Counted from the first letter of the stretch, positions 5,378 through 51,226 are shown. The stretch: 51,520 bases of DNA from an uncultured Bacteroides sp. (GCA_964580305.1 CAZOKL010000001.1:19617-71136); one strand, 5' to 3'. Notes: generated by a model from the letters alone, not told the origin. Program-made: numbers and translations.

Positions 5378-5457
5378 CGGAGTAGAGGGCGGCCGAGAGC
5401 CGAGTCCAGGGTAGGCGAGCACGGAGTCTATGCTAAGGTCGGGCGGAAAGGAGACCC
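5378..5457 (+). repeat. 22-bp periodic tandem array A (4 units)
   Basis: Cores start 5378 CGGAGTAGAGGGCG, 5400 CCGAGTCCAGGGTA, 5422 CGGAGTCTATGCTA, 5444 CGGAAAGGAGACCC; the most degenerate copy. Confidence 0.8.
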
Positions 5458-5586
5458 CGTTTTTCGCCCTTTGGCAGAGACAAAACCACAAAGGGTAGCC
5501 GGATGCAAAGTGACAAGGATATCCTCATGCATCAGCAACCACACCGGGATGTTTCCATATGACTTCCGGCACAGTCTTGCGGCTAC

Positions 5587-5624
5587 AAAAAATCCCCGCT
5601 ATGGCAGTCGCACCATAGCGGGGA
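5587..5624 (-). terminator. Intrinsic terminator at the end of the PUL
   Basis: TCCCCGCTATGG (5593-5604) / CCATAGCGGGGA (5613-5624) with A6 at 5587-5592 (U-tract on minus strand), 33 nt past the stop at 5658. Confidence 0.85.
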
Positions 5625-5657
5625 AATTACATTTTACTTTAAGCTAATGCCTGTCGC

Positions 5658-7220
5658 TTATCTCCAGCGTGGGTCACCGATACCATTAGCATTGTAAATC
5701 AAGTCTTCGTTGCCCAGCGTAAAGTCGCCGTTTTCTGCGTCGGCATATTCTGGGTCAAGCGTCGTGCCGGATGTATCGTAGAATCTTGCGCTTCCTCCAT
5801 CGTCAGACACCAGATTGGCAGTATTCCAATAGTTGTTATTGGAGAATGTCGGAGTCGAAGTGCTGCTATTATCGGAGAATCCGCGTCCACAATCTGGCAT
5901 GTTAGACACAATGTTGTTGGTAAACCTAATGCTGTTGCCTGAGAAGCGTACGTAGAGCAAACGACGGCTACTGTTGTTGCTACATCCGTCAATCGTACAG
6001 TGATCAATCGTAATAACCGGAGAGATGCCCGAGTAGCTGGATGAACTGTCGTCCATGCGGATGAAGTCACGGCTTGCGCAACTGTTCCAAATGGTGCTGT
6101 TCGTCAACGTCAGACTCTCAATGTAGCCGGCACGGCTGTCAAACATGTCGCCACCGCTACACTCAATGTCGTGAATCAAGCAGTTGTCTATTGTAATCGC
6201 ACTGATTTGTGCAGCATAACTTGAGCTTACGTAATAGAAGCCCGTCGTGTAGTTGCAAATCTCACAGTTGCTGAGGTTCAAGCCTTCAAACGTGCCGCTT
6301 TCGCTGAATACGAATGCTTGGCCGTCAGAACCAGTACCATCAAATATCATGTAGCTTGCCGTCAGGGATGCACCGGCTTTCAACTGGATGCGTCCGTTGA
6401 ATACGGGCAAATCATCTCTGTCGGCTGCCGTGATGGAGATTTTGGCGGAAATCTCCAGCGAACCCACATCGGCCGATTCGCCACTGCTGGGCACAACGTA
6501 TGTGCCGGGATAGAAGGCGAAGGAGGCGCCTTCTTCTGCATTTTCCAGTATGTCCACAATATCGTCTCCCGGATAGATGGCCGTCGCAGTGCCAATGTTA
6601 ATCGGGGTGCTGAATGTTATGGTGCCGCGCACTACGCCATCACGTGTCATCACAGCTGTATAATCGGTTTCAGGGTCCAAGTCTGTGATGGTGGCCGAAC
6701 CGTTAGCAATGTCTTCATCGGTAATCTCATAGATAATGTTACCCGGTGTGAGGGTAATGGTGTCGGCTACTTCACCAGCCGGCCAGCGCAAAGTCACTTG
6801 TGTGGCCTGGATGTCAGAGTTGGCCACGGTTTCAAATATTTGTTCCGTATCGGTGGAGAACGTAGCTTCCACCCACTTGGATTCGGTAATGTTTTCACCG
6901 ACAGCCTTCACGCGTACGAAGTAGTCCGTGTCACCATTCAGGCCTTCATAAGTGTAAGAGGTGGTGGTTACTTCATCCGTGCTGACTAATGTGCCGTTGG
7001 CATCGGAGCCTTGATAGAGTTCCAATACGTAAGACGTTGCATTGGTCACCTCATTCCATGACACAACACAATTTACACGGCTTCTCACGCTGGTAGTAAG
7101 CTCTGTGGGCGAGAACAAACGGTCATAACTTGCCTCTGTCAACTCCTCGGGAGCGTCTGAACAAGATGCTATTGCGCCCATCAATAGGCATCCGGTGATA
7201 TATTTCAAATATTTCTTCAT
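5658..7220 (-). CDS. Surface lipoprotein with FN3 domains and beta-helix (DUF4957/DUF5123-like), probable glycan-binding protein
   Basis: IASC lipobox followed by acidic SDAPEE; FN3 signatures (VSW..V..A..Y.LE, GL..DTDYFVRVKA); beta-helix repeats; C-terminal IGDPRW; lies directly after susD. Confidence 0.78.
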   Translation of the reverse strand: MKKYLKYITGCLLMGAIASCSDAPEELTEASYDRLFSPTELTTSVRSRVNCVVSWNEVTNATSYVLELYQGSDANGTLVSTDEVTTTSYTYEGLNGDTDYFVRVKAVGENITESKWVEATFSTDTEQIFETVANSDIQATQVTLRWPAGEVADTITLTPGNIIYEITDEDIANGSATITDLDPETDYTAVMTRDGVVRGTITFSTPINIGTATAIYPGDDIVDILENAEEGASFAFYPGTYVVPSSGESADVGSLEISAKISITAADRDDLPVFNGRIQLKAGASLTASYMIFDGTGSDGQAFVFSESGTFEGLNLSNCEICNYTTGFYYVSSSYAAQISAITIDNCLIHDIECSGGDMFDSRAGYIESLTLTNSTIWNSCASRDFIRMDDSSSSYSGISPVITIDHCTIDGCSNNSSRRLLYVRFSGNSIRFTNNIVSNMPDCGRGFSDNSSTSTPTFSNNNYWNTANLVSDDGGSARFYDTSGTTLDPEYADAENGDFTLGNEDLIYNANGIGDPRWR

Positions 7221-7234
7221 GGTTGTTTACGTGT

Positions 7235-9055
7235 TTATTGGTAATTCTCATAGTTAACCAGCATACCGTTGCTGTTGTCAATAAAGATTTGGAAGATGGG
7301 CCAGAACTGATGTTGGTCGGGATCGCCATCTGTGCAACGATATAATCCAAGTATCTTACCTTCCCAAGAACTGCTGTTTGCCCATCCTTTATTCGACTCG
7401 AAATTCAAGGCAGCACCTTCGTCATCGGTCTGGCCGAGTTCCAAACCGTAGATTTCCACAGTTTCATCATTTGTAATATCATCAAACACATTGCCCACAC
7501 CTTGGTACGGGGTTTCAGCCGAAATTGTCTGATAATAAATTCTGTTAGGCAGATTCGCATATTTTCCTGTTCTGTTGAACAAGTCGTACATCTCATTACG
7601 GGCCTCTACCAATGTGCTGGTCAAACGATTCCAACGAATGAGGTCAAACTTGCGGATAATCTCGCCACAGAATTCCAAACCGCGTTGTTCAACAATGGCT
7701 TCACGGAATGCGCTCTGGCTGGCAGTTGCTTCGTTCATGTATTCTTCCACCTTGGCATTGTTGTCAGGGAAAGCACGTTCCAAAATGGGGCGCAGATATT
7801 GGGCTGCATTGGTTGGGCCTTCCAGCTCATTAATGGCTTCGGCTGCCATGAGATAGACGTCGGCCAAACGCATATAAATCCAGTTCATGCCATCGTCGTT
7901 GCCGGCAGAAACGACACGACTCATCCATTCATGACGGAATTTGCCAAGATACCACTGATGCACAGAGTTGGGCACTTGAATGCCGTTTTCCCAATAGTAG
8001 GGCACGCAAGTCACATTGCGACGCACATCTTCCGGGTCATAGCGATAGAAAGCAATCGGAGTCGGTCCGTCATAGCCACCATTGCACATATTTGTATATA
8101 CATCGGCATTTTCATGAGGCACGGCCCAGTCTCTCATGACACGTCCACGACTGGAAGTATATGGAATCTCCCACAAAGATTCACGACCTGCTGTAAGGTT
8201 TTCAGCCATAAGCTCCTGGAAAGTCTGCTTGAAGCCACCCAATGTGTTGCAACCCTGGTTGATGATGCTTACACACTCGTCACGGGCAATCTGCCACATG
8301 GTGTTCTGTGCCAAACGCGAGTCGTTGCTCAGACGAATCGTGCCGTCGGCACGCTGCGAGTAACCGCCTGCATGGAGGGCAATGCGGGCACGAAGACCTT
8401 TTACAAATGATTTGCTTATCCGCTCCACAGAAGAAGTAACTGTGGTCGCATTGGGCCAGGCCACCATCTCTTCGGCGCGTGCCAAGTCATCGAGCAAGCG
8501 GGCATAAATCGAATCTCGGTCTGTACGCGCCATGTAGATAGTCTCATTGGTTATGGGCTCAAAACGTCCCGGCACATCGCCCCAGAGCTTTATCAAGTCT
8601 GCGTAAAAAATGGCACGGTAAGTAAGAGCTTCACCCAGGAGTTGCTGAAAGTCGGGGTCATCCAGGTCTGCATACGCCTCCAGTCCACGGATACACAAAT
8701 TGGCTTGCTCAATACCCTCATACATCATGGCCCAAGGACTGTTGTCCACATTCATACGGTCATTGTTGGAGGTGGCTGAATAGCTGGCCAACTGAGATTG
8801 GGTATCATTGTTACCTGAGTTGTTATACCATTCCATGTCCGTATTCTGGAAGAAGTGGCAGAAACGACCACGATAGTTCGTTCCTCCAAATATATTCGTG
8901 ATTCCCAAAACAGCATTCTCAGCCAAATCATAGCTGGCAAACACCACAGACTCGTCTGTTGAAGAGATAGTGGGCGCATCCAGAATGTCATCACAAGATG
9001 TCATGGCTCCCGTCAGGAGAAAGAGTGATGCATAAATATATTGTTTCATTCTCAT
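7235..9055 (-). CDS. susD: SusD/RagB family lipoprotein
   Basis: MTSC lipobox, GEALTYRAIFY..L..LWGDVP, MRLADVYLMAAEA, RGLEFCGE..RKFDLIRW; directly after susC. Confidence 0.95.
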   Translation of the reverse strand: MRMKQYIYASLFLLTGAMTSCDDILDAPTISSTDESVVFASYDLAENAVLGITNIFGGTNYRGRFCHFFQNTDMEWYNNSGNNDTQSQLASYSATSNNDRMNVDNSPWAMMYEGIEQANLCIRGLEAYADLDDPDFQQLLGEALTYRAIFYADLIKLWGDVPGRFEPITNETIYMARTDRDSIYARLLDDLARAEEMVAWPNATTVTSSVERISKSFVKGLRARIALHAGGYSQRADGTIRLSNDSRLAQNTMWQIARDECVSIINQGCNTLGGFKQTFQELMAENLTAGRESLWEIPYTSSRGRVMRDWAVPHENADVYTNMCNGGYDGPTPIAFYRYDPEDVRRNVTCVPYYWENGIQVPNSVHQWYLGKFRHEWMSRVVSAGNDDGMNWIYMRLADVYLMAAEAINELEGPTNAAQYLRPILERAFPDNNAKVEEYMNEATASQSAFREAIVEQRGLEFCGEIIRKFDLIRWNRLTSTLVEARNEMYDLFNRTGKYANLPNRIYYQTISAETPYQGVGNVFDDITNDETVEIYGLELGQTDDEGAALNFESNKGWANSSSWEGKILGLYRCTDGDPDQHQFWPIFQIFIDNSNGMLVNYENYQ

Positions 9056-9088
9056 AATATGCTATTGTTCGTTGGTTAAAGGATGATA

Positions 9089-12000
9089 TTAGAAGTTGAG
9101 GTTTAAACCGAAGACGAACGAGCGGCTCTTCGGATAAGCCGAGTAATCCACGCCCGGAGTCAGATTCGTTGAACGACGAGTAGACACTTCAGGATCGTAG
9201 CCGGAGTAACTTGTCCAACAGAAGAGGTTGTGGCCTGTTACATAGAAACGCAAGCTCTGAATCTTCACTTTGTTCAGTAACGATTTCGGCAGGGAGTAGC
9301 CCAGCGTTATGGTGCTCAGACGGAGGAAAGAACCATCTTCCACAGCCCAATCGGAGAATACATAGTTCTGCATGTAGGGCGACCACATAGTGGTATTGGC
9401 ATTCATGGCAGCCAGTTGTTCGGGATCATTGCAAAGCGTACCGTCTGCATTGAGGTTTGTCCAACGTTTACCATCGGCCATCTCGGTGATCATGTTACGA
9501 TACTTCGAACCGGCAGTGGTTGTGTATTCTATTTTGTTGGCGTTGTACACGTCGTTGCCATAGCTCCACGTAAAGTTGGCAGAAAAATCGAAATTATAAA
9601 CACGCATATTCATACCAAAACCTCCGGTATGCACGGGATTGGCATCGCCGATGATTTCACGGTCGTCCAGTGTCACTACGCCATCGCCTGTAAGGTCTTT
9701 CAGCTTCATGGAACCCGGACGAAGTGTGCCGATAATCTGTGAACAATCGACCACACCCTCACGCAGAATCCAAGTATGAGTGGTTTCGTCATAACCTGAG
9801 AAGTCAGACACCTCATAACGCCCATCACTACGATAGCCGTACATCTGGCCCACAGATCCGCCTACAGCAACCATATAGTCGGCTGTAATATCTGAGCTGG
9901 CCCAGCCTGAACTAGCTGTAAAGTCGCTCATAATGCCCAGCGATTCGATTTTATTCTTGTTGAAACTGATGTTGGCGTTGAAGTCCAAGCCAAAGTTAGC
10001 CTTATTCACTGCAACCCAGTTGATGGAGGCTTCAAAACCTCGGTTAGAAGTCTCGCCCAAGTTGCGATATTGGTCTTCATAACCCGTACCGGAAGTCGGG
10101 AACTGAATGAGCAAATCTTTTGTAGTGTTCCAGTAATATTCCAACGAACCGTTCAAACGTCCACCGAGAAGAGTGTAATCCACACCGATGTTACGCGTAA
10201 TGGTAGTCTCCCATTTCAAATCGGGATTATACATGTGCGAGCTCGGATTCCAGATGGTGTTAGTCGTGTTTATATACACCGCATTACTACCTGTTGTTGA
10301 CTCCCATACTTGTGTGATTTGTCCGCTCGGGATATTATTATTACCAGCTGTACCATAGCTGAAACGCAGCTTCAAGTCGTCAAGCCAATTGCGTGTTTTC
10401 TCCATGAACGGTTCGGCAGAGACGCGCCATGCGACGGCTGCAGAGGGGAAGAAGCCCCATCGATTGCCTTCGGCAAATTTGGAAGAACCATCGGCACGGA
10501 ACGTAGCCGAGAGGAGATACTTGCTGTCATAGTCATAGTTGACACGACCGAACCAAGATAACAGGATGTCATTGGGTGAATAATAATCTTCCACTGAAGA
10601 GGGTACGCCTTGTGTAGTCAAGGAGAAACAGTCGTCGGCTGTGAAACTTGTCGGGAAGCCCAACAACGTGCTGGTCATCTCGCGTTCTTTCTCGATGATG
10701 TATTCCTGACCTACCATAACGTTCAAATGGTGTGAGCTGTTTTTCTGGAACAGGCTTTTAAAATCGTAGCTCAACGTATTGGTGTTGCGGAAGGTGTTAC
10801 GTTCCGTTCCTGTAAGGACAATAGCCGGATAGCCACAATAATCGCCCGCGCGTTGGCGTGAGAAATACGTGGTGAGGCCATAATAGCGGTTGTCATCGTT
10901 GTCGTAGGTGTCCCAACCGAACTCAGTCTTGAATTGGAAGTTCTTGAAAATCTCCCAAGTGAAACTTCCGGCCATATTCAGTGTCTCGCGGCGTTGAATG
11001 CGGTCGTTGTCACTGACAAACTGCATTGGGTTGTAGAGACCAAAATCCTCATCCGTGTCGCCACTGTCATCAGACAAGCCATCCACTGGGAACGGAGTAT
11101 AAAGTATGGAGTTTTTCAGACGAGAGTCAGAGCTGGAATACTCATTTTGTTCATTTGCACCTCCACCGGTCACTTTACGCTTGGCATAGCGTATAGAGAA
11201 ATCGAGCTTTGTGTTCTTAGTCGGTTTCGCATTCAGTTTCAAGCTGAGGTTGTCACGCACGAAGTCAGACATCTGCATGATGGCCTTGTCATCCATGTGT
11301 GAATAGTTGAATGAGAATTTCATCTTATCCGAACCACCGCTAATACTTAAACTGTGGTTGAACGTGTGACCTGTACGGCCAAAGATGATATCCTGCCAGT
11401 CATTGGTTTCCATGTTATCATAAAGGTCGATGTCCTGATAGTTCCCGAAGTACTGAGTATACTGCGTAGGATTGATTTCATTAGGACGGGTGCTGTTATT
11501 CAACATTGCCAGTTCATATTGCCAACGGACGTAGTCACTTGGATCCAGGACGTTGAGTTTGTTGGCCAGATTCTTCACAGAAAGGTAGGCATTATAGCTT
11601 ACGTTAATCTTGCCTTCCTGGCCACTCTTGGTAGTCACGATGATAACACCATTGGCACCGCGTGAACCGTAGATGGCGGTTGAAGAAGCATCCTTCAGCA
11701 CAGTGATGTCTTCGATGTCACTCGCAGGAATATCGCTGATGCTTTCCACTGGGAAACCATCGACAATGTAGAGGGGGTCGTTGCTCTGAGTGATGGAACC
11801 GCCGCCACGCACACGAATCGTCATCTCAGCATCAGGCGAGCCTTCAGTCGTAGTGATGCGCACACCGGCCAGTTTTCCCTGCATGGCCTCCACAGCTGAA
11901 GCCACGGGAACTGCCATCAAGGCTTCATTGCCCACAGTGGCCACAGAACCGGTGATGTCTTTCTTCTTCACCGAGCCGTAACCGATGACCACTACTTCTT

Positions 12001-12322
12001 CGAGACTCTGGGTGTCTTCACGAAGAGTGATTTTTAGCGGAGAATTATCACCTCTTACACGTGCTTCCTGGGTTACATAACCTATATAAGAAAAGACAAG
12101 CGTACTTCCTTCCGGCACATCGGCCAGCTTGAAGTTTCCGTCAAAATCGGTGATGGCGCCTTGTTTTGCACCCTTCACTTGTACACTCACGCCAATCAAA
12201 GGTTCGCCCGTTGGGTCGATTACCGTACCTGTCACGTGCTTACCCTGCGCGAAAGCGAACAGGCAGCATAAACTCATCAGCAGAGTTGCCGCCCATCTTT
12301 TAAAGAGACATTTTTGAATCAT
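9089..12322 (-). CDS. susC: SusC/RagA TonB-dependent transporter
   Basis: N-terminal CarboxypepD-like domain, LEEVVVIGYG, VLKDASSTAIYGSRGANGVIIVTTK plug motif, DLKWETT, C-terminal GLNLNF. Confidence 0.97.
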   Translation of the reverse strand: MIQKCLFKRWAATLLMSLCCLFAFAQGKHVTGTVIDPTGEPLIGVSVQVKGAKQGAITDFDGNFKLADVPEGSTLVFSYIGYVTQEARVRGDNSPLKITLREDTQSLEEVVVIGYGSVKKKDITGSVATVGNEALMAVPVASAVEAMQGKLAGVRITTTEGSPDAEMTIRVRGGGSITQSNDPLYIVDGFPVESISDIPASDIEDITVLKDASSTAIYGSRGANGVIIVTTKSGQEGKINVSYNAYLSVKNLANKLNVLDPSDYVRWQYELAMLNNSTRPNEINPTQYTQYFGNYQDIDLYDNMETNDWQDIIFGRTGHTFNHSLSISGGSDKMKFSFNYSHMDDKAIMQMSDFVRDNLSLKLNAKPTKNTKLDFSIRYAKRKVTGGGANEQNEYSSSDSRLKNSILYTPFPVDGLSDDSGDTDEDFGLYNPMQFVSDNDRIQRRETLNMAGSFTWEIFKNFQFKTEFGWDTYDNDDNRYYGLTTYFSRQRAGDYCGYPAIVLTGTERNTFRNTNTLSYDFKSLFQKNSSHHLNVMVGQEYIIEKEREMTSTLLGFPTSFTADDCFSLTTQGVPSSVEDYYSPNDILLSWFGRVNYDYDSKYLLSATFRADGSSKFAEGNRWGFFPSAAVAWRVSAEPFMEKTRNWLDDLKLRFSYGTAGNNNIPSGQITQVWESTTGSNAVYINTTNTIWNPSSHMYNPDLKWETTITRNIGVDYTLLGGRLNGSLEYYWNTTKDLLIQFPTSGTGYEDQYRNLGETSNRGFEASINWVAVNKANFGLDFNANISFNKNKIESLGIMSDFTASSGWASSDITADYMVAVGGSVGQMYGYRSDGRYEVSDFSGYDETTHTWILREGVVDCSQIIGTLRPGSMKLKDLTGDGVVTLDDREIIGDANPVHTGGFGMNMRVYNFDFSANFTWSYGNDVYNANKIEYTTTAGSKYRNMITEMADGKRWTNLNADGTLCNDPEQLAAMNANTTMWSPYMQNYVFSDWAVEDGSFLRLSTITLGYSLPKSLLNKVKIQSLRFYVTGHNLFCWTSYSGYDPEVSTRRSTNLTPGVDYSAYPKSRSFVFGLNLNF

Positions 12323-16987: not shown

Positions 16988-17125
16988 AGTAAAAGTATAT
17001 GTTTTGTACTTATATTTCAACGGACAAAGTTAGGTGTTTTTTTAGTCGTTGCAATGCTTTGACATTCAAAATGTGTCTTCTTGCCATTTGTTCCTGAAAA
17101 TGAGGGCTTTTGACCCTCTCGTGAG

Positions 17126-17205
17126 CGGAGTAGAGGGCGGCCGGATGCCGAAAGGAAGGCGGGCGGGAGCGGAAAGGAGGGCAGGAAAGGGCGGAAAGGA
17201 GGGCG
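17126..17205 (+). repeat. 22-bp periodic tandem array B (4 units)
   Basis: Cores at 17126 CGGAGTAGAGGGCG, 17148 CCGAAAGGAAGGCG, 17170 CGGAAAGGAGGGCA, 17192 CGGAAAGGAGGGCG. Confidence 0.92.
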
Positions 17206-17398
17206 GCCCGGGATGGGGAAAAGACCATGGGTGTGCCTGGAGGAATAAATGGTGGAAAAACAAAGGCCGTTCGCTGTGAATGTGTTACTTTTGCACGAGT
17301 TTCACTTCGTCTTCTCCCGGCCGATGGCAGAAAAGAATGTATCGGGAGCAGCTTTCGGAGTGATTTTTCAGAATATATAATTATGTAATTATGGTTCT

Positions 17399-21697: not shown

Positions 21698-21958
21698 TCT
21701 GTTGAGGATTTGATTGTTTTTTAGTGAATATCCGTAAGTTGTCTTCTTTGGGGACGGAGCCTTGCGGATGTTCAGTCGCTTAATAACTCTATCATAAGCA
21801 AATGTAGTATATTATATTGTAAAAATCGACGTTTTGATAGTTTTTTTTCGAGTAATACCAAAAAAAGTATAGGAACAGTCGGAATTAGCGTATTATTTTT
21901 AGTTTTTTAGTTGGCGAATGGTGAAACACGGAAGATGGTTGTGGAAGGTGGCCGGACC

Positions 21959-22060
21959 GGGCATAGAGGGCGCCCGTGAGCGGAAAGGAGGGCGTGGTCG
22001 GGCGGAGTAGAGGGCGGATGCGGGCGCAAAGGAGGGCGTCCGTAAAGGGGAAAAAGGATG
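21959..22060 (+). repeat. 22-bp periodic tandem array C (4 units plus degenerate fifth)
   Basis: Cores at 21959 GGGCATAGAGGGCG, 21981 CGGAAAGGAGGGCG, 22003 CGGAGTAGAGGGCG, 22025 CGCAAAGGAGGGCG, 22047 GGGGAAAAAGGATG. Confidence 0.92.
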
Positions 22061-34245: not shown

Positions 34246-35157
34246 TTAGTTCTTTTCCGCAATTCGGAGCTTGGCGCTGCGTGAGCGAGGGTTGCGTAGC
34301 TGTTCGTCATCGTCGGGGATGATGACTTTGTTGTTTACAAGACGGAATGGTGTCTGCACGTTGCCGAAAAAGTCCTTTTCCATGCGTCCTTCCGTGTTTC
34401 CCGTTTTCATGAGGTTTTTCACCATGCGGTCTTCCAACGAGTGGTAGGTGATGACCACCAGCCGTCCGCCGGGTTTCAGCACCCGTACAGCGTCGGTCAG
34501 CATCTCCTTCAAGGCTTCCATCTCCTGATTCACTTCGATGCGCAGGGCCTGGAATGCCTTGGCCAGCTCTTTCTTCTCGCGCTCGCGACCGAAGAGTGGG
34601 CGCACAACGGTGAGAAAGTCGTCAATCGTGGTGAAGGGCGTGCGTGTGCGTGCCTTCACCAGCGTGGAAGCCAGTTTGCGGCTGTTTTTCAGCTCTCCAT
34701 AGAGACGGAAGATGTCGGCCAACCGCTCTTCGGCATACGTGTTGACTACGTCGGCGGCCGTGAGGCCTGAACGCTTGTTCATGCGCATGTCCAGCTTCCC
34801 TTCGAAACGGAAGGAGAATCCCCGCTCACTGTCGTCGAAATGATGGGAAGACACGCCCAAGTCTGCCAGAATGCCGTCCACCTCCTCGTGGCCATAGTAA
34901 CGCAGAAAGTTGCGCAAGTAGCGAAAGTTGCTGCGCACGAAAGTGAAGCGCGGGTCGTCAATGATGTTTTGCTCGGCATCCTCGTCCTGGTCGAAACCGT
35001 AGAGACGAGCCGTGCTGTCCATACACTTCAGTATCTCGCGTGAATGTCCGCCCCCTCCGAAGGTCACGTCCACATACACGCCTCCGGGTCGGATGTTCAT
35101 GCTGTCCACACTGGAATGGAGCAGGACGGGCACATGATAGACTTTGTCTGCATTCAT
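34246..35157 (-). CDS. rsmH: 16S rRNA m4C1402 methyltransferase
   Basis: HVPVLL, DVTFGGGGHS, DLGVSS, LDMRM, FQALRIEVN, YHSLEDR, NPRSRSAKLR; start at ATG 35157 (MNADKVYHVPV), the 70-codon upstream extension judged non-coding. Confidence 0.96.
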   Translation of the reverse strand: MNADKVYHVPVLLHSSVDSMNIRPGGVYVDVTFGGGGHSREILKCMDSTARLYGFDQDEDAEQNIIDDPRFTFVRSNFRYLRNFLRYYGHEEVDGILADLGVSSHHFDDSERGFSFRFEGKLDMRMNKRSGLTAADVVNTYAEERLADIFRLYGELKNSRKLASTLVKARTRTPFTTIDDFLTVVRPLFGREREKKELAKAFQALRIEVNQEMEALKEMLTDAVRVLKPGGRLVVITYHSLEDRMVKNLMKTGNTEGRMEKDFFGNVQTPFRLVNNKVIIPDDDEQLRNPRSRSAKLRIAEKN

Positions 35158-35395
35158 TTTCTTGGCTGTCGTTGAAAAAAGTAAGGGCATGAGCGTCAGG
35201 GCTGTGTGCGTGTGCGTTACCGTCTCGTTTCCCAGACTGTTCTCAGTGCTGAATTTTGTGTGTAAAAATACATAATTCCTGAGTATCGTGTACTTTATTT
35301 TGTGAAAAACCTGCGAATTAGTTTTCAACACGATGTTGATAAGGCCTATCTCTTGAGTGTGAGGCACTTCCGTGGGGCATAATTGGGAGCTTGCA

Positions 35396-35475
35396 CGGAA
35401 AGGAGAGCAGGCAAACGCGGAAAGGAAGGCGGGTGGGGACGGAAAGGAGGGTAGGCAGGTGCGGAAAAGAGGGTG
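35396..35475 (+). repeat. 22-bp periodic tandem array D (4 units)
   Basis: Cores at 35396 CGGAAAGGAGAGCA, 35418 CGGAAAGGAAGGCG, 35440 CGGAAAGGAGGGTA, 35462 CGGAAAAGAGGGTG. Confidence 0.92.
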
Positions 35476-35519
35476 CCCGCATGCGTGTGGAAAGATGGAT
35501 GCGGATACCCTCCGTTGTG

Positions 35520-36182
35520 TTATTGCACTTTGTAAATATTCATCTCATCCTGAAAATCCTGAAGGATGTTGAACAGGTCTTGTTCGCCTGCCTTGCGTGC
35601 CTTGATGACCATTGTCACCTGATAGGTCGTGGCGCGTTCATGGTTCACTTGCTCCATTTCGTAGGAAGCAATGATGAAACCGCTGGCCAGAAGACGTTCG
35701 CGCACGGCATTCACCACTTCGCGCCGTGAGGTGGAAAACTCTATGTAGGAGCTTTTCATGCCGATGCTTTTGAACAAGTAGCTGAGCACCTCCAGACCCA
35801 CGAGGGTGAGTACTGCGGCCGATATGCCCAGCCAGTACATGCCTGCACCAATGGTCATGCCGATGCCAGCCGTGGCCCAGATGCCTGCAGCCGTGGTCAG
35901 TCCGCGCACGATTTGTTTCTGGAAGATGATGGTGCCCGCACCGATGAAACCTATACCCGTTACCACCTGTGAGGCGATGCGGCTTGGGTCAAGGTTGACG
36001 CCCGGCTCTCCAATCAGTGCGTCGAAGCCGAATTGAGAGACAATCATGAGCAGCGCGCTGCCCAGCGATACGAGGAAATGGGTGCGATAGCCGGCTTCCT
36101 TGGCGCGATATTCGCGATCCAGTCCGATGAGTGCGCCCAATACGCCGGCCAAGAAGAGGCGGAAGATGAATTCTAATATCAT
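35520..36182 (-). CDS. MgtC/SapB family membrane protein
   Basis: IGLDRE..AGYRTH.LV, DPSRIASQVVTGIGFIGAG, GLTTAAGIW; start at ATG 36182 because -7 TATCTTTG lies at 36205-36212. Confidence 0.92.
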   Translation of the reverse strand: MILEFIFRLFLAGVLGALIGLDREYRAKEAGYRTHFLVSLGSALLMIVSQFGFDALIGEPGVNLDPSRIASQVVTGIGFIGAGTIIFQKQIVRGLTTAAGIWATAGIGMTIGAGMYWLGISAAVLTLVGLEVLSYLFKSIGMKSSYIEFSTSRREVVNAVRERLLASGFIIASYEMEQVNHERATTYQVTMVIKARKAGEQDLFNILQDFQDEMNIYKVQ

Positions 36183-36299
36183 AGCCTTATGGTTTATTTG
36201 TGCCCAAAGATACGACAAACCTTCTGTCGGCCGTTCTGTTTCAGGGCGTTTTTTGGGACTCTGATTGTCGAATATTGTCTTCTTTTGCGGATAGGCAGT

Positions 36300-41108: not shown

Positions 41109-41195
41109 AGTGTGGTGTGCATCATTGGTCTGTCGGCAAAGTTACGATTTTCGTCCTATTTTCCCTCTGTTGTGGCCAAGGATTCGGGCCGACCG

Positions 41196-41275
41196 CGGAA
41201 AGGAGGCCGGGCGAGGACGGAATAGAGGGTAGCCGACCACGGAAAGGAGGGCGCGTTTGGGCGGAGTAAAGCCCG
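41196..41275 (+). repeat. 22-bp periodic tandem array E (4 units)
   Basis: Cores at 41196 CGGAAAGGAGGCCG, 41218 CGGAATAGAGGGTA, 41240 CGGAAAGGAGGGCG, 41262 CGGAGTAAAGCCCG. Confidence 0.92.
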
Positions 41276-41412
41276 TCCGCGGACTTTGCCGGAAGCGGGT
41301 CGTGGCATTCGGAGTTTTTGGAACAGGCTCTTAAATTATTGAAAATCTTTCCTCCTATGTTTCCCGAAATACCTATATTCGCATAATAATAGAATCTCTT
41401 TAAACTTAACTT

Positions 41413-43664: not shown

Positions 43665-44518
43665 AAGCTCTGACGATATGGAAGACGGGGCTGCTCATGG
43701 CGCTGACGGTGGGACTGCTTGCCGGATGTCGTTCCTCACGCCTGCCGGCAGAGAAGTCGCCGGAAATGACAACCGTCAGTGATTTGGAACATGTGGAGCG
43801 GGTCATCGCACAAGTGCCCCAGACCGAATGCGTGAATGCCAAGATGCACTTTTCATTGCAGTTGGGCAGCAAAGATTTCTCGATAGGTGGCAATCTTCGC
43901 ATGAAGAAGGACGACGTCATCCAGCTTTCTCTCGTGGGTTTCGGCATTATTGAGGGCGGTCGCATTGAGTTCACGCGTGATTCTGTGTTGCTTGTTGACC
44001 GCATTCATCACCAATACGTTTCCGTTGCTTATCGTGACGTGCATTTCCTGCGTGAGGCACAGGTCGATTTTTACACGCTTCAGTCTCTTTTCTGGAATGA
44101 ACTGGTATTGCCGGGTTTGCCCCAGGTGACACAGGCTGAGGCTTCTGACTTTGAGGTGACACATGAAAAGGAAAACACCGTGCTTTCCGCTAGACGGACG
44201 AACCGTCGTTTGGCCTATCGCTTCGTGACTTCCCTGGCCACCGGTTTGCTGGAACAGACGGTGATAAGTTCCGCTTCCGGCAGCGCACTGAAGTGGAGTT
44301 ATGGTGATTTTGTCGACTTGGCCGGAGCGAAATTCCCCTCGCTTCAGAAAGTGGAACTTTCCGGGATGCATGTACCTGCCGTGATGACCATTTCTCTGAA
44401 CCGCATCGCGACAGATGGTGGTTGGGCCACACGCACACAGGTGTCCAAACGTTATCGGCGCATCAGTGGCGACGAGTTTATCAAGATGTTGATGCAAATG
44501 CAAAGTCTCGGCCTATGA
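43661..44518 (+). CDS. DUF4292-like lipoprotein
   Basis: LAGC lipobox, LRMKKDDVIQLS, DFYTLQSLFWN; ATGA overlaps at both ends. Confidence 0.8.
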   Translation: MKALTIWKTGLLMALTVGLLAGCRSSRLPAEKSPEMTTVSDLEHVERVIAQVPQTECVNAKMHFSLQLGSKDFSIGGNLRMKKDDVIQLSLVGFGIIEGGRIEFTRDSVLLVDRIHHQYVSVAYRDVHFLREAQVDFYTLQSLFWNELVLPGLPQVTQAEASDFEVTHEKENTVLSARRTNRRLAYRFVTSLATGLLEQTVISSASGSALKWSYGDFVDLAGAKFPSLQKVELSGMHVPAVMTISLNRIATDGGWATRTQVSKRYRRISGDEFIKMLMQMQSLGL

Positions 44519-45765
44519 AGAAGTGGTGGCTGTCAGTCTGTTTGTTATGCATGGCGTTGTCCCTGTCGGCACAAACCAACAGCAAGATTAGGGAGTTGCA
44601 AACTCAGCGCGGGTCTTTGATGAAGGAGATTTCCGCTTCGGAAAAGATGTTGCTTTCGACACGGAAAGACGTGCGCAGTCTGCTGAACGACCTCAATGTG
44701 CTGACCGGGCAAATCGAGCAGCGCAAGAAACTGATAGCAACCATCGAACGTGACGTGAAGACATTGGATGCCGAACTGAACACGCTCCATGCCCAACTGG
44801 ACGATTTGCGTAAGCAGCTTGCCGACCGGGAGGACAAGTATGCAGCTTCGCTCCGATATAGTTACCGTAATCGTTCGGTGCAGGACAAACTGATGTTCAT
44901 ATTTTCGGCAGAGAATCTTGCACAGACCTATCGCCGTCTGCGCTATGTGCGTGAGTATGGTGACTTTCAGCGTCGGCAGGCTGAGGACATCATGCGTCGT
45001 CAGAAAGACATCGAGGTAAAGCAGAGCGAACTGCGCGAGGTGCGTATCGAACAGAGCGGCTTGATCGACCTCCAGACAGCTGAGCTCGCCAAATTGAGAG
45101 CGCAAGAGAAGAGTCAACAGACTCTCGTTGCCGACTTGCAGCGCAAACAGAAGAGTCTGCAAAGCGAATTGACTAAGAAACGTCGTGAGGCCGATCGCCT
45201 GAATGCACAGATTGACCGCCTGATTGAGGCGGAGATTGCGTCTGCAAAAAAGGAGAGCGCGGATAAAGCTGCGTCAGCAAAGAGTAAGACATCCTCATCT
45301 GCCAGGACTGCCCCTATGGAGACTTATAAGGTGGATGCGGACAACCGTAATCTGTCAACCGTCTTCGAACGTAACAAAGGCATTCTTCCCGTTCCCATCA
45401 CAGGGCCTTATCTCATCGTGGAGCACTATGGCCGCCACAATGTGCCCGGTATGCGTTATGTTGCGCTTGACAACAAAGGCATCGACATCAAGGGACAGGC
45501 TGGAGCGCAGGCACGTGCGATTTTCGACGGTGAGGTGTCTGCCGTGTTCCAATATAACGGGATGACCAATGTGCTGGTACGTCATGGGAGTTACATCTCT
45601 GTCTATTGCAATCTTTCGTCGACTAGCGTGAAACGCGGTCAGAAAGTGAAGGCACGCGATCCGCTCGGTCGTGTGGCCGACGACGGTTCGGGCAACATCA
45701 TTCTTCACTTCCAGCTTCGCAAAGAGACGGCGAAGTTGAATCCCGAAGCTTGGATAAAAGGGTGA
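44515..45765 (+). CDS. EnvC-like murein hydrolase activator (coiled coil plus degenerate M23 domain)
   Basis: Signal peptide MKKWWLSVCLL, long coiled coil, NKGIDI and LHFQLR; start at ATG 44515 overlapping the previous stop. Confidence 0.87.
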   Translation: MKKWWLSVCLLCMALSLSAQTNSKIRELQTQRGSLMKEISASEKMLLSTRKDVRSLLNDLNVLTGQIEQRKKLIATIERDVKTLDAELNTLHAQLDDLRKQLADREDKYAASLRYSYRNRSVQDKLMFIFSAENLAQTYRRLRYVREYGDFQRRQAEDIMRRQKDIEVKQSELREVRIEQSGLIDLQTAELAKLRAQEKSQQTLVADLQRKQKSLQSELTKKRREADRLNAQIDRLIEAEIASAKKESADKAASAKSKTSSSARTAPMETYKVDADNRNLSTVFERNKGILPVPITGPYLIVEHYGRHNVPGMRYVALDNKGIDIKGQAGAQARAIFDGEVSAVFQYNGMTNVLVRHGSYISVYCNLSSTSVKRGQKVKARDPLGRVADDGSGNIILHFQLRKETAKLNPEAWIKG

Positions 45766-45889
45766 AGTCTTCCAGACGCGTGTTTTTATTGACTCTACCC
45801 GTATTTACACCATAGAAAATTGGCTGCATGTCACTCATTGTGTTGATGAGTGCATCTCATGTGATTTATTATATCTTGTTTGCCAGTCG

Positions 45890-47116
45890 TTAGAGTAATC
45901 TGCGGCTAAGGTGGCGGACAGGATACCATACAGCAAGGAATCCCACGGCGATAACGGTGACGAATATTACAAGAATGTCGATTGCATGGACGCTCACCGG
46001 ATAGGCGTCGACAACAAAGCTGTCTGCCGAAGTGCCAAGTGTGAGCAATCCGAAACGTTGCTGTGCATAGCAGAGAGCCAGTCCGGCAAGGATGCCGGCC
46101 ACGGCGCCTAAAAAGGAGATCATGCGCCCTTCAAACAGGAAAATGCGTATGATAAGCCGGTCGTCGGCTCCCAAGCTGCGCAGGGTGGCCACATCAGCTT
46201 TCTTGTCGATGATGAGCATGGAGAGCGAGCCGATGACGTTGAAGCAGGCAATCAGCAAGATAAATGTAAGAAAAAGGTAGGCGATGAGTTTCTCTATTTC
46301 CATGATGCGGAAAACATCGGCTTGTTGTTCGTAGCGGTCGGCCACGGTGAAGTCTGGGCCCATGATTTCACTTATCTTTTCTTTTGTCCGGGCCATGTCG
46401 GTGCCCGGCTTGAGTTTCAGTTCGACGGCCGAGACTTCCGTATCATAGTCAAACAGCTGTCGGGCGAAGTCAAGTGACACGAGGATGTAAGAGTCGTCAT
46501 ACTTCTGTTGGTTGACGATAAAAACCACTCCCGGTGAATAGAGATAGCTTCGGTTGAAGCTGGTTGCGGGATTAGCCATATTGACACGCGCCTTGCGTTT
46601 GGGGACATACACTTCCCAAGGGTCGACAAAAGCGATGCCGGAGCCCAGTATGGAGGTGAGTTGTATGCCGGGGATGCCATAGTTGACCACTTCGTCGCGG
46701 AGCATGAAATGACCATGGCCGTAAAGGATGCTGTCAATGTCTGTGAGTTGTTCAAAGTTATCCTCCACCCCTTTGAGTGTCACCATCGCCTGCTTGCCTT
46801 TGTATTGCACCATCGCATTGTCTTCCAGCGAACAAGAAAACACATCTACTTCGGGCAGCAAACGCACTTGAGCGAGACGCTTGTCTTGCGAATCAAACAC
46901 TTTGCCCTGACGCACGGTGATTTTCAGTTCTGGGTCGAAGGTGGTGAAGAAACTTGCCACCAAGTCTTGGAAGCCGTTAAAAACGGATAACGTGCACACC
47001 ATAGCCAGTGTGGCAAGAGCCACACCGCACACAGAGATGCCCGAAATGATGTTGATGGCATGGTGCGATTTCTTCGAGAAGAGGTAACGCTTGGCGATGT
47101 AGAGAGGCAGGTTCAT
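45890..47116 (-). CDS. FtsX-like / LolC-E family ABC permease
   Basis: IAKRYLFSKK, LSVFNGF, large periplasmic domain, three C-terminal TMs, LRSLGA..IFLFEG. Confidence 0.87.
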   Translation of the reverse strand: MNLPLYIAKRYLFSKKSHHAINIISGISVCGVALATLAMVCTLSVFNGFQDLVASFFTTFDPELKITVRQGKVFDSQDKRLAQVRLLPEVDVFSCSLEDNAMVQYKGKQAMVTLKGVEDNFEQLTDIDSILYGHGHFMLRDEVVNYGIPGIQLTSILGSGIAFVDPWEVYVPKRKARVNMANPATSFNRSYLYSPGVVFIVNQQKYDDSYILVSLDFARQLFDYDTEVSAVELKLKPGTDMARTKEKISEIMGPDFTVADRYEQQADVFRIMEIEKLIAYLFLTFILLIACFNVIGSLSMLIIDKKADVATLRSLGADDRLIIRIFLFEGRMISFLGAVAGILAGLALCYAQQRFGLLTLGTSADSFVVDAYPVSVHAIDILVIFVTVIAVGFLAVWYPVRHLSRRLL

Positions 47117-47448
47117 TCCTTCAGGAGCTCATCAATCTTTTCCAGGTAGTCCAGTGAATCGTCAAGGAAGAAGCGCAGTTCGGGGATGATGCGCAGTTGG
47201 AAACGTACGCGGCTGCCCAACTCGTAGCGGATGTTTTTGGCGTGTGTCTTGATGTTGTTCAGAATTTCCTCACTACGGTTGGAGGGGAAGATGCTCAGGT
47301 AGGCACGAGCCACGCTCAAGTCAGGGCTGATGCGCACCACACTGACCGTAATCAATACGCCACCCATGGCTTTGGTTTCCTTTTGAAATATGTCGCTCAG
47401 TTCTTTCTGGATGAGCCGTGCGATTTTGTTTTGTCTGGTAGTATCCAT
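47113..47448 (-). CDS. rbfA: Ribosome-binding factor A
   Basis: RQNKIARLIQKELS, SPDLSVAR.Y.S, LRIIPELRFFLDDS. Confidence 0.96.
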   Translation of the reverse strand: MDTTRQNKIARLIQKELSDIFQKETKAMGGVLITVSVVRISPDLSVARAYLSIFPSNRSEEILNNIKTHAKNIRYELGSRVRFQLRIIPELRFFLDDSLDYLEKIDELLKE

Positions 47449-47472
47449 ATTAATATAAAATAGGTGTTAAGG

Positions 47473-48111
47473 TTATCGTTTCCGGATGATGGTCAGTCCG
47501 TCGCGTAGCGGGAGGATAACTTTCTCCACCCGCGTGTCGGCTGCCACAAGGTCATTGAACGCCTGTATGCCGATGGTTTGCTGGTCGGAGGAAGCTGCTT
47601 CTTTCAACACGTGGCCGTCCCACAGGGTGTTGTCTGCCAGAATGTAGCCTCCGGATGTGAGGCGTGGGAGAATCATTTCGTAGTAGTCGGTGTAGTGCCG
47701 TTTGTTCCCGTCGATGAAGGCCATATCAAAGTGCAGGTTGAGGCGGGGCACCAGCTCCAGTGCATCGCCGATGTAGAACCGAATCTTGTCAGCGCAGGGC
47801 GAGTGCTCCAGCCACGGGCGGGTGAAGTCCTCCTGTTCATCGTTGATTTCAAACGTGTGAATCATGCCTCCTTCCTCCAGTCCCTCTGCCATGCAGATGG
47901 CCGAATAGCCGCTGTAAGTGCCGATTTCCAGAATCTGCCTGGGGCGTATCATGCGGACGAACATCTTTAGCATACGTCCTTGCAGATGCCCTGAAGCCAT
48001 GCGGGGATAGAGTAGCTTCACGTGTGTGTCGCGATAGAGTGCCCGCAGATAGTCGCCTTCGTCGTCAATGTGGCTCAGGATGTAGTCATCAATGGATTCG
48101 GTCTCTTGCAT
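47473..48111 (-). CDS. SAM-dependent O-methyltransferase (CCoAOMT/TrmR-like)
   Basis: ILEIGTYSGYS, FDMAFIDGNK, ADNTLWDG, LPLRDGL. Confidence 0.9.
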   Translation of the reverse strand: MQETESIDDYILSHIDDEGDYLRALYRDTHVKLLYPRMASGHLQGRMLKMFVRMIRPRQILEIGTYSGYSAICMAEGLEEGGMIHTFEINDEQEDFTRPWLEHSPCADKIRFYIGDALELVPRLNLHFDMAFIDGNKRHYTDYYEMILPRLTSGGYILADNTLWDGHVLKEAASSDQQTIGIQAFNDLVAADTRVEKVILPLRDGLTIIRKR

Positions 48112-48129
48112 GCGAGGTCGGCCTTTGTG

Positions 48130-49602
48130 TTACAGGTAGCGGTTCCGGTTCGGGAGTATGTACTCGTCGTCTTCGGCATACTTCAACACATCGCTCACCA
48201 GATTGATTTCCAAGAAAGAGGTGTGTGTGCCTTTCTTCCCTCCACTCAGGTAAGCCACCATCTCGTTCTCACGGATGACGCCGTCGTTGAGCAGCTTGTG
48301 CAGGGCTGCGAAGTAGTAGGCTTGTCCGTTGGGCAGTTCCGGCATGTAGATGGCTTCCACGCCGTAAGACAGTGCCAGGTGGCGCATGGTTTTCTCATTA
48401 TAGCAGATGGCCAGCACGGGATATTCTCCGCGGAAAGATGCCAGATTGCGTGCCGTGTATCCGCTGAAGCTGTCGGTGATGATGGCACGGATGTTCATCT
48501 TCTCCGTGGCCTTCACGGCTTGTTTTGCCAGGAACTCGGTCACACTGCAGTCTGGGCCGAGCGGGATATGGATGTCGTTTTCCGACATTTTGTCGATTTC
48601 AGCCTGTGCCGCGATTTTGCTCATGGTCTTCACAGCTTCCACCGGGTATTTGCCGTAGGCCGTCTCACCGCTGAGCATTAGAGCGTCGGTGCGGTAATAG
48701 ATGGCATTGGCAATGTCGGTTACCTCGGCACGTGTCGGACGCGGGTTCTGAATCATCGTGTGCAACATCTGTGTGGCGACGATGACCGGCTTGCGTGCCA
48801 TCACGCACTTGCGGATGAGGATGCGCTGGATGCCCGGGATGCGTTCCTGCGGCACCTCGATGCCCAGGTCGCCGCGTGCCACCATGATGCCGTCGGCCAC
48901 TTCCAGAATCTCGTCAATGTTGTCCACGCCTTCCTGGTTCTCTATCTTGGCTATGATTTTGATGCTGCTGTGGTGTTCGTTGAGAATTTTACGTATGTCG
49001 AGCACATCCTGCTTGTTGCGCACGAAAGAGTGTGCGATGAAGTCAATGTCTTTCTCGATGGCATACAAAATGTTGTTGCGGTCTTTTTCCGTGAGCGACG
49101 GCAGGTTGATGCGCACACCCGGCACATTCACGCTCTTGTGGTTGCCCAAGGTCGCATCGTTGCGCACCTCGCATATCAGTGTGTTGGTCGTTTCGTCTTT
49201 TTCCATTACGGCCAGTTCCAGGTCGCCATCATCGATGAGGATAGTTTCGCCCACTCGCAAGTCGTTCACAAAGTGCGGATAGGAGACGGCAATGCAGTCA
49301 TGGCTTGTTTTTTCCATCGGGTCACCAATCACGGTCACTCGTTCGCCCGTATGGAAGGGGATGGGCTCTCCGTTAAGCAGGTCGGTGGTGCGCACTTCCG
49401 GGCCTTTGGTGTCCATCAGTATGGCGATGCGGTTTGAAACCTTACGCACGTTGGCTATCAGCTTCTCGAAACCTTCACGGTTGGCATGGGCTGTGTTCAT
49501 GCGCACGACATTCATGCCGGCTTCAAACAGTTGTCTTATAAAATCTTCATCGCAGCGCAAGTCGGAGATAGACGCCACGATTTTTGTTTTCTTTAGCATC
49601 AT
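48130..49602 (-). CDS. pyk: Pyruvate kinase
   Basis: KTKIVA, RMNTAH, DTKGPEVR, IAKIEN, MVARGDLGIE, ATQML, MLSGETA. Confidence 0.97.
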   Translation of the reverse strand: MMLKKTKIVASISDLRCDEDFIRQLFEAGMNVVRMNTAHANREGFEKLIANVRKVSNRIAILMDTKGPEVRTTDLLNGEPIPFHTGERVTVIGDPMEKTSHDCIAVSYPHFVNDLRVGETILIDDGDLELAVMEKDETTNTLICEVRNDATLGNHKSVNVPGVRINLPSLTEKDRNNILYAIEKDIDFIAHSFVRNKQDVLDIRKILNEHHSSIKIIAKIENQEGVDNIDEILEVADGIMVARGDLGIEVPQERIPGIQRILIRKCVMARKPVIVATQMLHTMIQNPRPTRAEVTDIANAIYYRTDALMLSGETAYGKYPVEAVKTMSKIAAQAEIDKMSENDIHIPLGPDCSVTEFLAKQAVKATEKMNIRAIITDSFSGYTARNLASFRGEYPVLAICYNEKTMRHLALSYGVEAIYMPELPNGQAYYFAALHKLLNDGVIRENEMVAYLSGGKKGTHTSFLEINLVSDVLKYAEDDEYILPNRNRYL

Positions 49603-49629
49603 AGAACTTTTAAAATATTTTTGTTGTAA

Positions 49630-50064
49630 CTATTTCTTGGTCTGGTTTGTTTGGAGCAATGCTTCCACCGCCAGGCGGTAAGAGTCAAGCCCGAAGCCGC
49701 AGATGACGCCCACGCAGGCGCATGAAATCATCGACTTGTGGCGGAATTCCTCGCGCCGGTGCACGTTTGAGATGTGTACCTCGATGACCGGTGAAGTGAT
49801 GGCGCGGATGGCATCCTGCAAGGCGATGGATGTGTGGGTGTAGGCTCCGGCATTGAGCACGATGCCGTCACAATCGAAACCCACTTCGTGAAGTTTGTTT
49901 ATCATCTCGCCCTCGACGTTCGACTGGTAGTAGGCCAGCTCAATGTCAGGATAGGCTTTGCGCAGGGTCTCCAAATAAGTATCAAACGAAACTGCGCCAT
50001 AGATGGAAGGCTCGCGTTTGCCCAGAAGGTTAATGTTGGGCCCGTTGATAATTTGTATTTTCAT
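49630..50064 (-). CDS. aroQ: Type II 3-dehydroquinate dehydratase
   Basis: NGPNINLLGKREPSIYG, QSNVEG, NAGAYTHTS, EVHISNVHRREEFRH. Confidence 0.97.
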   Translation of the reverse strand: MKIQIINGPNINLLGKREPSIYGAVSFDTYLETLRKAYPDIELAYYQSNVEGEMINKLHEVGFDCDGIVLNAGAYTHTSIALQDAIRAITSPVIEVHISNVHRREEFRHKSMISCACVGVICGFGLDSYRLAVEALLQTNQTKK

Positions 50065-50102
50065 GTCTGTAGACTTTGGAGGTTTTGTTCTATTTTTGTA
50101 GG

Positions 50103-50122
50103 TAAATTTGGGTACAAAGGTA
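50103..50122. promoter_or_regulatory. Face-to-face -7 elements of xerD (+) and aroQ (-)
   Basis: TAAATTTG on + (50103-50110) and TACCTTTG on - (50115-50122) in a 68-bp divergent gap. Confidence 0.55.
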
Positions 50123-50132
50123 GGAAAAAGAA

Positions 50133-51071
50133 ATGGAAAACAAGGAAAAATGTTTCAATAAGGAACAAAACAACACCCTTCTTAGGAAATATAAACAGTA
50201 TTTGCAACTGGAGCAATCTCTCTCACCCAATACGGTTGAAGCCTATTTGGCTGATGTGGACAAACTGATGGCCTATTTGACATTGGAGGGCGTTCAAGTG
50301 TTTGATGTCGAGCTTGACGACCTGCACAACTTCGCTGCCGGACTGAAGGACATCGGCATCCACCCGCGCTCGCAGGCACGCATCCTTTCCGGCATACGCT
50401 CATTCTACAAGTTCCTTGTGCTCGACGGCTATATGGAGGACGACCCTACGGTCTTGCTGGAGTCGCCCAAACTGGGGCTGCACTTGCCCGAAGTGTTGAC
50501 GGTGAGTGAGATTGACCGTATCATCGCTGCCGTCGACCTGTCCAAAACCGAAGGCCAGCGCAACCGTGCCATTGTCGAGACCCTTTACAGTTGCGGCCTG
50601 CGCGTGTCAGAGCTCTGTGAACTCAAGCTCTCCGGCCTGTATTTGAATGAAGGCTTCATGCGTGTGGAGGGCAAGGGCAATAAGCAACGCCTTGTCCCCG
50701 TGTCGCCCCGTGCCGTTGAGGAACTGAAACGCTATTTCGAGCAGCGTGCCGAGATGACCAACATCAAATCCGGTCATGAAGACTACGTATTCCTGAGCTT
50801 CCGGCGAGGTACCAGGTTGTCACGCATCATGGTGTTTCACTTCATCAAGGAACTGGTGGAGCTGGCCGGTGTGAAGAAGAGTGTCAGCCCGCACACGTTT
50901 CGCCACTCCTTTGCCACCCATCTGCTCGAAGGTGGAGCCAATCTGCGTGCCATCCAGCTGATGCTTGGTCACGAATCCATCGGGACGACAGAAATCTACA
51001 CGCACGTAGACCGCAACATGTTGAGAGAAGCCATCCTCGAACATCACCCTCGAAACATCAACCGTAAATGA
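50133..51071 (+). CDS. xerD: Site-specific tyrosine recombinase XerD
   Basis: LSPNTVEAY, SQARILSGIRSFY, LPEVL, LYSCGLRVSEL, GKGNKQRLVP, SPHTFRHSFATHLL, LGHESIGTTEIYTH; housekeeping context. Confidence 0.9.
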   Translation: MENKEKCFNKEQNNTLLRKYKQYLQLEQSLSPNTVEAYLADVDKLMAYLTLEGVQVFDVELDDLHNFAAGLKDIGIHPRSQARILSGIRSFYKFLVLDGYMEDDPTVLLESPKLGLHLPEVLTVSEIDRIIAAVDLSKTEGQRNRAIVETLYSCGLRVSELCELKLSGLYLNEGFMRVEGKGNKQRLVPVSPRAVEELKRYFEQRAEMTNIKSGHEDYVFLSFRRGTRLSRIMVFHFIKELVELAGVKKSVSPHTFRHSFATHLLEGGANLRAIQLMLGHESIGTTEIYTHVDRNMLREAILEHHPRNINRK

Positions 51072-51124
51072 CTTTTCGTAAAAGTATGGCAGGCGGCCAA
51101 ATCTGTCACAGAGCATGGCGTGAG

Positions 51125-51226
51125 CGGAGTAGAGGGCGCTCGAACACGGAGTAGAGAGCGGGCAAGGACGGAATAGAGGCCGCCCGAGCACGGAGTAGAG
51201 GGCGGACAAAGAGGGAGAAAAAGGCG
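51125..51226 (+). repeat. 22-bp periodic tandem array F (4 units plus degenerate fifth)
   Basis: Cores at 51125 CGGAGTAGAGGGCG, 51147 CGGAGTAGAGAGCG, 51169 CGGAATAGAGGCCG, 51191 CGGAGTAGAGGGCG, 51213 GGGAGAAAAAGGCG. Confidence 0.93.

Follow-up and report, generated by a model that had tools for sequence, protein, structure and literature searches.

The question raised by a stretch of 51,520 nucleotides from an uncultured Bacteroides sp. (GCA_964580305.1 CAZOKL010000001.1:19617-71136, called the window below) is what the six short repeat arrays are that lie in its intergenic gaps between positions 5,378 and 51,226, and what keeps their units exactly 22 bp apart. The window lies at the end of contig C1 of an assembly of 2.27 Mb in 190 contigs, 96% complete, which is named G000 here. 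By sequence comparison, the six arrays are copies of one family dispersed throughout this genome, and they are probably phased binding sites for dimers of an HU-HIG protein, most likely the one encoded on contig C180. The initial annotation had described four cores in each array at +0, +22, +44 and +66 without indels, all in intergenic DNA, and this was confirmed at the positions given, including the exact 22-mer shared by two arrays (5374 and 17122) and the 18-mer shared with a third (51121); all six arrays are flanked by long open reading frames (ORFs) with protein family matches. The arrays are as follows, with no strand assigned:

5374..5461, array A: four pseudo-palindromic units of 22 bp, with a ferredoxin-type gene on one side of the co-directional gap and a SusC-cluster gene on the other
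17122..17209, array B: gap between divergent genes, four units
21955..22042, array C: upstream of an asnC-like gene in a co-directional gap, four units
35392..35479, array D: four units between an mgtC-like gene and rsmH, at the start of a cell-wall cluster
41192..41279, array E: four units between the divergent genes for dGTPase and dut
51121..51226, array F: four units and a degenerate fifth core, downstream of an xerD-like gene

The presumed genome-wide family was borne out by scanning G000 with a core profile built from the 24 window cores. The matches are spaced by 22 bp in 137 pairs, by 44 bp in 67 and by 66 bp in 19, with none at 21, 23, 43 or 45 bp, and a model allowing both orientations returns 121 arrays at period 22 (128 at a looser cut-off) and none at any of nine control periods; a reversed-pattern control gave 0 matches. 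That is to say, the family comprises about 125 arrays and has 22 bp as its sole period. Two units are found in 5 of the 121 arrays, three in 37, four in 69 and five in 10, so the four units described from the window are the mode but not a rule, and 79 of the 121 have four to five. The free variation of period and unit number that is characteristic of neutral minisatellites is not seen (2–5 units, period 22 only), and strict phasing together with bounded unit number supports the earlier suggestion of selection on spacing, as signs of it. The in-phase signal reaches one to two slots past the array and then disappears, and the outer slot often carries a TTAA centre.

The core is a pseudo-palindrome whose two 7-bp halves belong to two related types, and an 8-bp linker follows it. 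Two parts of the initial annotation have to be given up at this point: the linkers do not drift freely, being drawn from a small vocabulary that is closed under reverse complement, and the units are not iteron-like direct repeats, being dyads that flip within arrays, with both orientations mixed in one register in 64 of 128 arrays and one orientation only in 35 of 128. The six arrays of the window share one direction and five of the six are of pure single orientation, but this same-strand look is atypical, because half of the arrays mix orientations. An iteron or parC array is ruled out by the mixed orientations and by the housekeeping genes that neighbour the window arrays, and a clustered regularly interspaced short palindromic repeat (CRISPR) array by the 8-bp linkers from a shared vocabulary and the lack of an Rfam match.

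As for location, arrays occupy 41 of the 140 gaps between divergent genes, 60 of the 270 between co-directional ones and 8 of the 75 between convergent ones (Fisher p=0.007). The count covers gaps of 150–1500 bp, for which ORFs were called crudely and short ones lying over arrays were left out; two long ORFs overlap arrays and look by eye like shadow frames. Proteins of the window match SusC, GlsA/GlsB and LolB1, and the view that the neighbours form no regulon of related genes is supported. The distance to the −7 promoter motif is indeed variable, ranging evenly from 25 to 292 bp without fixed spacing. Between rsmH and the mgtC-like gene (34246-36218) there is no ORF of at least 100 aa; array D fills this gap, and mraZ, the usual first gene of the rsmH cell-wall cluster, is not there.

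What the initial annotation overlooked is the tie of the whole class of such arrays to HU-HIG genes. These genes were found by TIGR01201 (one G000 gene by PF14848), and of the 51 full-length genes examined in five genomes 33 are preceded within 600 bp by a periodic array, two or three of these arrays being low-complexity and doubtful, and 37 have one upstream or downstream, against a background at the same score of 96 of 1647 G000 ORFs (5.8%). Five short or canonical HU/IHF matches, none of which has an array, are excluded from the 51, and no array was found near either canonical HU/IHF gene of G000. In G000 itself, 11 of 12 HU-HIG genes have a distinct array family within 600 bp, and these eleven families are palindromic, with a period of 21–24 bp and 1–12 copies each. 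The arrays beside the genes (contig:position) are:

C20:15689, C55:4623, C54:3982, C53:5746, C9:4140 and C76:7247
C26:10032, C22:14607, C13:21521, C5:14003 and C2:22278

The window family matches these HU-HIG-linked arrays in architecture, that is, in the 21–24-bp period, the dyad cores and the approximately four units. The HU-HIG loci of genomes G043, G045 and G024 are mostly array-linked too, and there is a tendency for orthologous HU-HIG clades to retain their period and related cores, as in a clade fused to a winged helix-turn-helix at period 21 and another clade at period 24. At least a dozen further 21–24-bp families occur in G000. Unrelated families of 21–24 bp are also carried by other Phocaeicola, and a de novo scan found period-22 arrays of unrelated sequence at 55 per Mb in G017 and 87 per Mb in G012. 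The G012 family has a central ATAT and 40 arrays in 400 kb (L279-L298), with four units as the mode; some of its linkers are common to G000, and its sites are mostly unshared (1 of 7). Small G000 families also exist without an assigned HU-HIG gene (C4:18292, C26:24820, C34:1; C153:1931; C67:3431), and the first of these families, that of C4:18292, matches the array that precedes an HU-HIG clade in both G012 and G019. Compound arrays of at least 10 units, with two families in unbroken 22-bp register, are seen in G017 (L075-L094; for example C1:128371, 148508, 335176 and 491157), and similar ones in L319 and L320.

The twelfth HU-HIG gene of G000 lies on contig C180, which starts 22 bp before it. 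The orthologues of this gene in the sister genome G006 (90%) and at a metagenome locus (93%) have an array of the window family 627 and 585 bp upstream, respectively, and about 0.7 kb upstream of a G024 homologue (46% identical) lies an array whose core is nearly identical; in G017, two of three members of the C180 clade adjoin the two abundant families of that genome. The G006 orthologue is modelled as an HU fold (predicted local distance difference test score 79.8), with 4FMR / BVU_2165 as best match. The C180 protein is the best candidate partner of the window family, at about even chances. Separately, an inverted-repeat element, which we take to be of the repetitive extragenic palindromic (REP) type, lies between array and gene at the G006 locus, about 300–420 bp upstream of the gene (L107).

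Under the HU-HIG reading, one two-fold symmetric HU-HIG dimer would occupy each 22-bp dyad, and four to five dimers would be aligned on one face of the helix over about 90–110 bp, where they might bend or coat the DNA on the promoter side of genes. It is proposed that inversion of a core would be harmless because of the symmetry of the unit, and that indels would be harmful because of phase. The array beside an HU-HIG gene could be an autoregulatory copy. The family may have multiplied in an ancestor common to G000 and G006, carried at least in part by non-autonomous elements that have insertion sequence (IS) ends, and the arrays may have been kept by selection on spacing and by sequence exchange among copies. 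Binding, bending, regulation and selection are what we infer from these patterns.

The history of the arrays can be followed at sites shared with G006, of which 1.18 Mb of 3.8 Mb was compared, containing 101 arrays. Among the 128 G000 arrays, 32 were mapped colinearly, the other 96 not mapping to the part compared, and at 29 of the 32 sites G006 has an array as well; in the reverse direction, 28 of 38 sites are shared and 63 arrays are unmapped. The unit number is 2–5 in both genomes. Arrays B, C, D and E of the window occupy shared sites, with five units at the site of D in G006; array A has a G006 counterpart at the matching place (C104:278911), with flanks not colinear in the automatic test, and for array F a G006 array lies just beyond the syntenic block (C71:67451). 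In G012, the site of array B is occupied by an array of that genome's own family. Among aligned orthologous cores, 5 of 88 are nearer to the reverse complement, from which 3 differ by at most one base, and such inversion without loss of register is as expected for a symmetric binder. With sites shared and cores rewritten or inverted, it therefore appears that place and phase persist while the letters are rewritten by exchange. The surroundings of array E record one gain or loss:

41149..41325, no strand assigned: segment of about 175 bp around array E, absent from the orthologous G017 gap, ends approximate

No terminal repeat is recognisable at this segment, and from its absence in G017 it was either gained in the lineage of G000 and G006 or lost in that of G017.

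The family is abundant solely in G000 and G006. The strict pattern matches 1 of 40 relatives, namely G006, and the looser pattern has 132 matches in G000, 196 in G006 and 0–2 in each of 399 other Bacteroidaceae genomes; a scan of named genomes returned 24 stretches, all under Phocaeicola coprophilus, and viral contigs gave 0 matches to one strict pattern. The single copy in G017 is a passenger on a SusC/SusD block which, judging by its identity, is a recent transfer, and on which no DNA-binding partner was seen:

L195:5289-15000 and L196:4177-13891, no strand assigned: SusC/SusD block of 9.7 kb, 99% identical between G017 and G006

Cores of a related kind are present in low copy number in G043, G045, G024 and others. 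Related-core arrays were tried as a guide to the partner (G043, G045, G004, G020, G041, one G024 locus, G183 and G350), and no HU-HIG gene lies within their loci of about 3 kb, so the partner is not identified by them. In G043 and G045, long arrays of 7 to 14 units with related cores (L192:1500-1650, L193:1370-1680) sit between an mltG-like gene and rplT, as labelled by eye.

Several points weigh against an HU-HIG partner and against selection on the arrays. The array near the C180 orthologues is closer to a divergent gene, its distance (585–627 bp) exceeds the 25–230 bp usual for HU-HIG arrays, and with one family array per about 10–18 kb a nearby copy is not rare by chance. No family array is found near the 78% identical G012 orthologue, near the G001, G003 and G005 orthologues, or at 22 metagenome loci; G003 has the C180 clade and no abundant family in 160 kb, and G043 and G045 have related cores and no close C180 homologue. 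HU-HIG proteins have moreover been argued, in the available part of the account, to be unlikely sequence-specific factors (Burroughs et al. 2017, PMC5499826). Orthologous arrays aligned in register are 64% identical (core 69%, linker 55%), compared with 84% in the flanking genes and 54% in array pairs taken at random; in gapped alignment they are no more conserved than adjacent intergenic DNA (70% vs 69%), with 1.4 vs 3.8 gap openings per 100 bp. Variant frequencies are species-specific and haplotype structure is strong, which shows copying among arrays.

These last points also favour the strongest alternative, namely that the arrays are functionless minisatellite relics, spread as MITEs (miniature inverted-repeat transposable elements) and homogenised by gene conversion or template switching, so that the period comes from copying and not from a protein. 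In its favour is a carrier: some G006 arrays ride in a cassette of about 250 bp with terminal inverted repeats, present in roughly twenty copies of 74–88% identity, with the corresponding G000 sites empty. The same ends bound a longer element in G022:

L268:3-1519, no strand assigned: ISAs1-family element of 1.5 kb, frameshifted, with the same terminal repeat

Such ends also adjoin arrays of other families in G014, G043 and G045 (3 of 24 loci; L260:1501-1800, L262, L272). No target-site duplication is evident by eye at the cassette ends, which are decayed. In G000, 1 of 12 matches to the terminal repeat faces an array and none is found at the six window arrays; a carrier origin of the window arrays is accordingly no more than presumed, and of the non-autonomous element offered in the initial annotation the carrier cassette in G006 stands, but the window arrays have no recognisable ends. 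The mosaic vocabulary with lineage-specific variants, the orthologous identity at intergenic level and the precedent of BrickBuilt, a MITE of Porphyromonas gingivalis (PMC4596501), agree with relics as well. However, unit numbers are bounded (2–5 here, and four as the mode in the unrelated G012 family) against 1–22.8 in BrickBuilt, off-register spacing is absent, and the unrelated families beside HU-HIG genes are left unexplained. The flanks decay while the arrays persist: in ten copies of the cassette, identity is 90% over a gap-free central 66 bp and 63–67% in the flanks, which have 2.1–4.6 gaps per pair, a contrast inflated by the copies having been picked and anchored on the array, and copying could also explain conservation within carrier copies. 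On balance, relics are unlikely.

Still less probable is a phased array for a protein outside the HU-HIG clade, such as a nucleoid protein or a regulator, which merely resembles the HU-HIG-linked ones. It would account for the fact that this family is never within the usual distance of an HU-HIG gene and for the unclean co-occurrence of clade and family, but the architecture shared with the eleven HU-HIG-adjacent families of G000 speaks against it, as does the one HU-HIG gene left unassigned there.

An element acting at the level of RNA, be it a REP-like hairpin, a terminator or a small RNA, is very improbable: dyads and mixed orientations permit hairpins in some arrays, and repeats of Bacillus are transcribed (PMC8625621), but the six arrays, each folded on both strands, have z-scores of −2.2 to +0.5 (1 of 12 below −2), on which the hairpin reading was rejected, Rfam gives no match to the arrays, convergent gaps are depleted, and helical phasing is a property of duplex DNA. 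A replication-oriented chromosome signal such as KOPS, Chi or matS is equally improbable, since, although the six window arrays are co-oriented and neighbouring G006 arrays share polarity in 50 of 79 pairs (p=0.024), replichore polarity is not supported by G000 (20 of 37, p=0.74), orientation has no link to local GC skew in G000 or G006, few arrays are of single orientation (35 of 128) and the family is absent from close relatives.

Binding by HU-HIG dimers thus remains the preferred reading, and it can be carried one step further, tentatively and with rather more doubt than confidence, to parallel, lineage-private nucleoid systems in Bacteroidales. Each HU-HIG paralogue would read its own array, and in each lineage one such pair could be multiplied on carriers with IS ends until there is about one array per 10–18 kb and one in four promoter-side gaps is occupied; conversion and core inversion would then let protein and sites drift together. 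The window family would be a take-over of this kind, a chromatin-like layer that is programmed by sequence and turns over between sister species.

The analysis joins two questions, the purpose of constant non-coding repeats of about 22 bp and the role of the expanded HU-HIG clade in gut Bacteroidales. One genome offers candidate matched protein-site pairs (eleven assigned families and the window family), and a two-species alignment shows about 125 sites keeping phase while being rewritten. If the reading is true, sequence specificity has arisen in HU-fold proteins on many occasions apart from IHF, and orthogonal pairs of protein and array could serve as genetic tools in Bacteroides.

Among known systems, iterons, parC/ParR and omega-repressor arrays are phased cooperative sites, often beside the gene of their binder, and are single-locus elements of plasmids or origins. 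The present arrays are likewise helically phased; unlike them, they are chromosome-wide, stand beside housekeeping genes and have invertible dyad units. REP sequences and bacterial interspersed mosaic elements (BIMEs) are abundant, lineage-restricted, intergenic mosaic repeats. In contrast to these, the arrays form no conserved stable hairpin by the folding z-scores, convergent gaps are depleted rather than enriched, and no Y1/RAYT transposase (PF01797) was found in G000, with one weak match in G006.

The claim that the family is not a described one is upheld in part. No paper on it or on HU-HIG-adjacent arrays was found, a search that most subscription papers lie beyond, as does the 2020 J Bacteriol survey of Subirana and Messeguer, which may list this family; the available part of PMC6749651 makes no mention of Bacteroides. 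'Undescribed' is not fully upheld, because repeats of 20–23 nt (Subirana and Messeguer) and BrickBuilt are published. Subirana and Messeguer described constant-length non-coding repeats of 20–23 nt and 52 nt (PMC8161180; further account in PMC8625621) and suggested a polymerising protein that requires constant repeat size. As far as the available part of PMC8161180 goes, the likeness lies in dispersed non-coding copies, a constant period near two helical turns and sequence unconserved between species, all of which are found here, with constant length, at least four units in 79 of 121 arrays, and the period kept without the sequence in the period-22 arrays of G017 and G012. That part names no protein and describes no dyad half-sites, unit inversion or four-unit bound, nor orthologous-site conservation or HU-HIG linkage.

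BrickBuilt, by what is available of PMC4596501, is likewise intergenic and from Bacteroidales, an imperfect 23-nt tandem repeat with IS-like ends, and the same paper mentions earlier-reported 22-nt repeats. It has 19 copies and IS5-type ends, whereas the present family has about 125 copies of 2–5 units, with ISAs1-type ends confined to a G006 subset, and lacks the free repeat-number variation of BrickBuilt. The candidate partners belong to the HU-HIG clade of the HU/IHF superfamily (TIGR01201, PF18291), which is expanded, fast-diverging and without operon partners; it was defined by Burroughs et al., who in the available part of their paper regard its members as perhaps interceptors of foreign DNA (PMC5499826), a view unlike the present one, in which most of the genes adjoin a private phased array. 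The specificity of Bacteroidetes IHF-like proteins is left open in the part of a preprint that is available (10.1101/2024.06.24.600358). In summary, as a repeat class the family is a variant of the known constant-period bacterial repeats, and its arrays are real, non-random and part of a coherent pairing of proteins with arrays, a pairing that is apparently unpublished.

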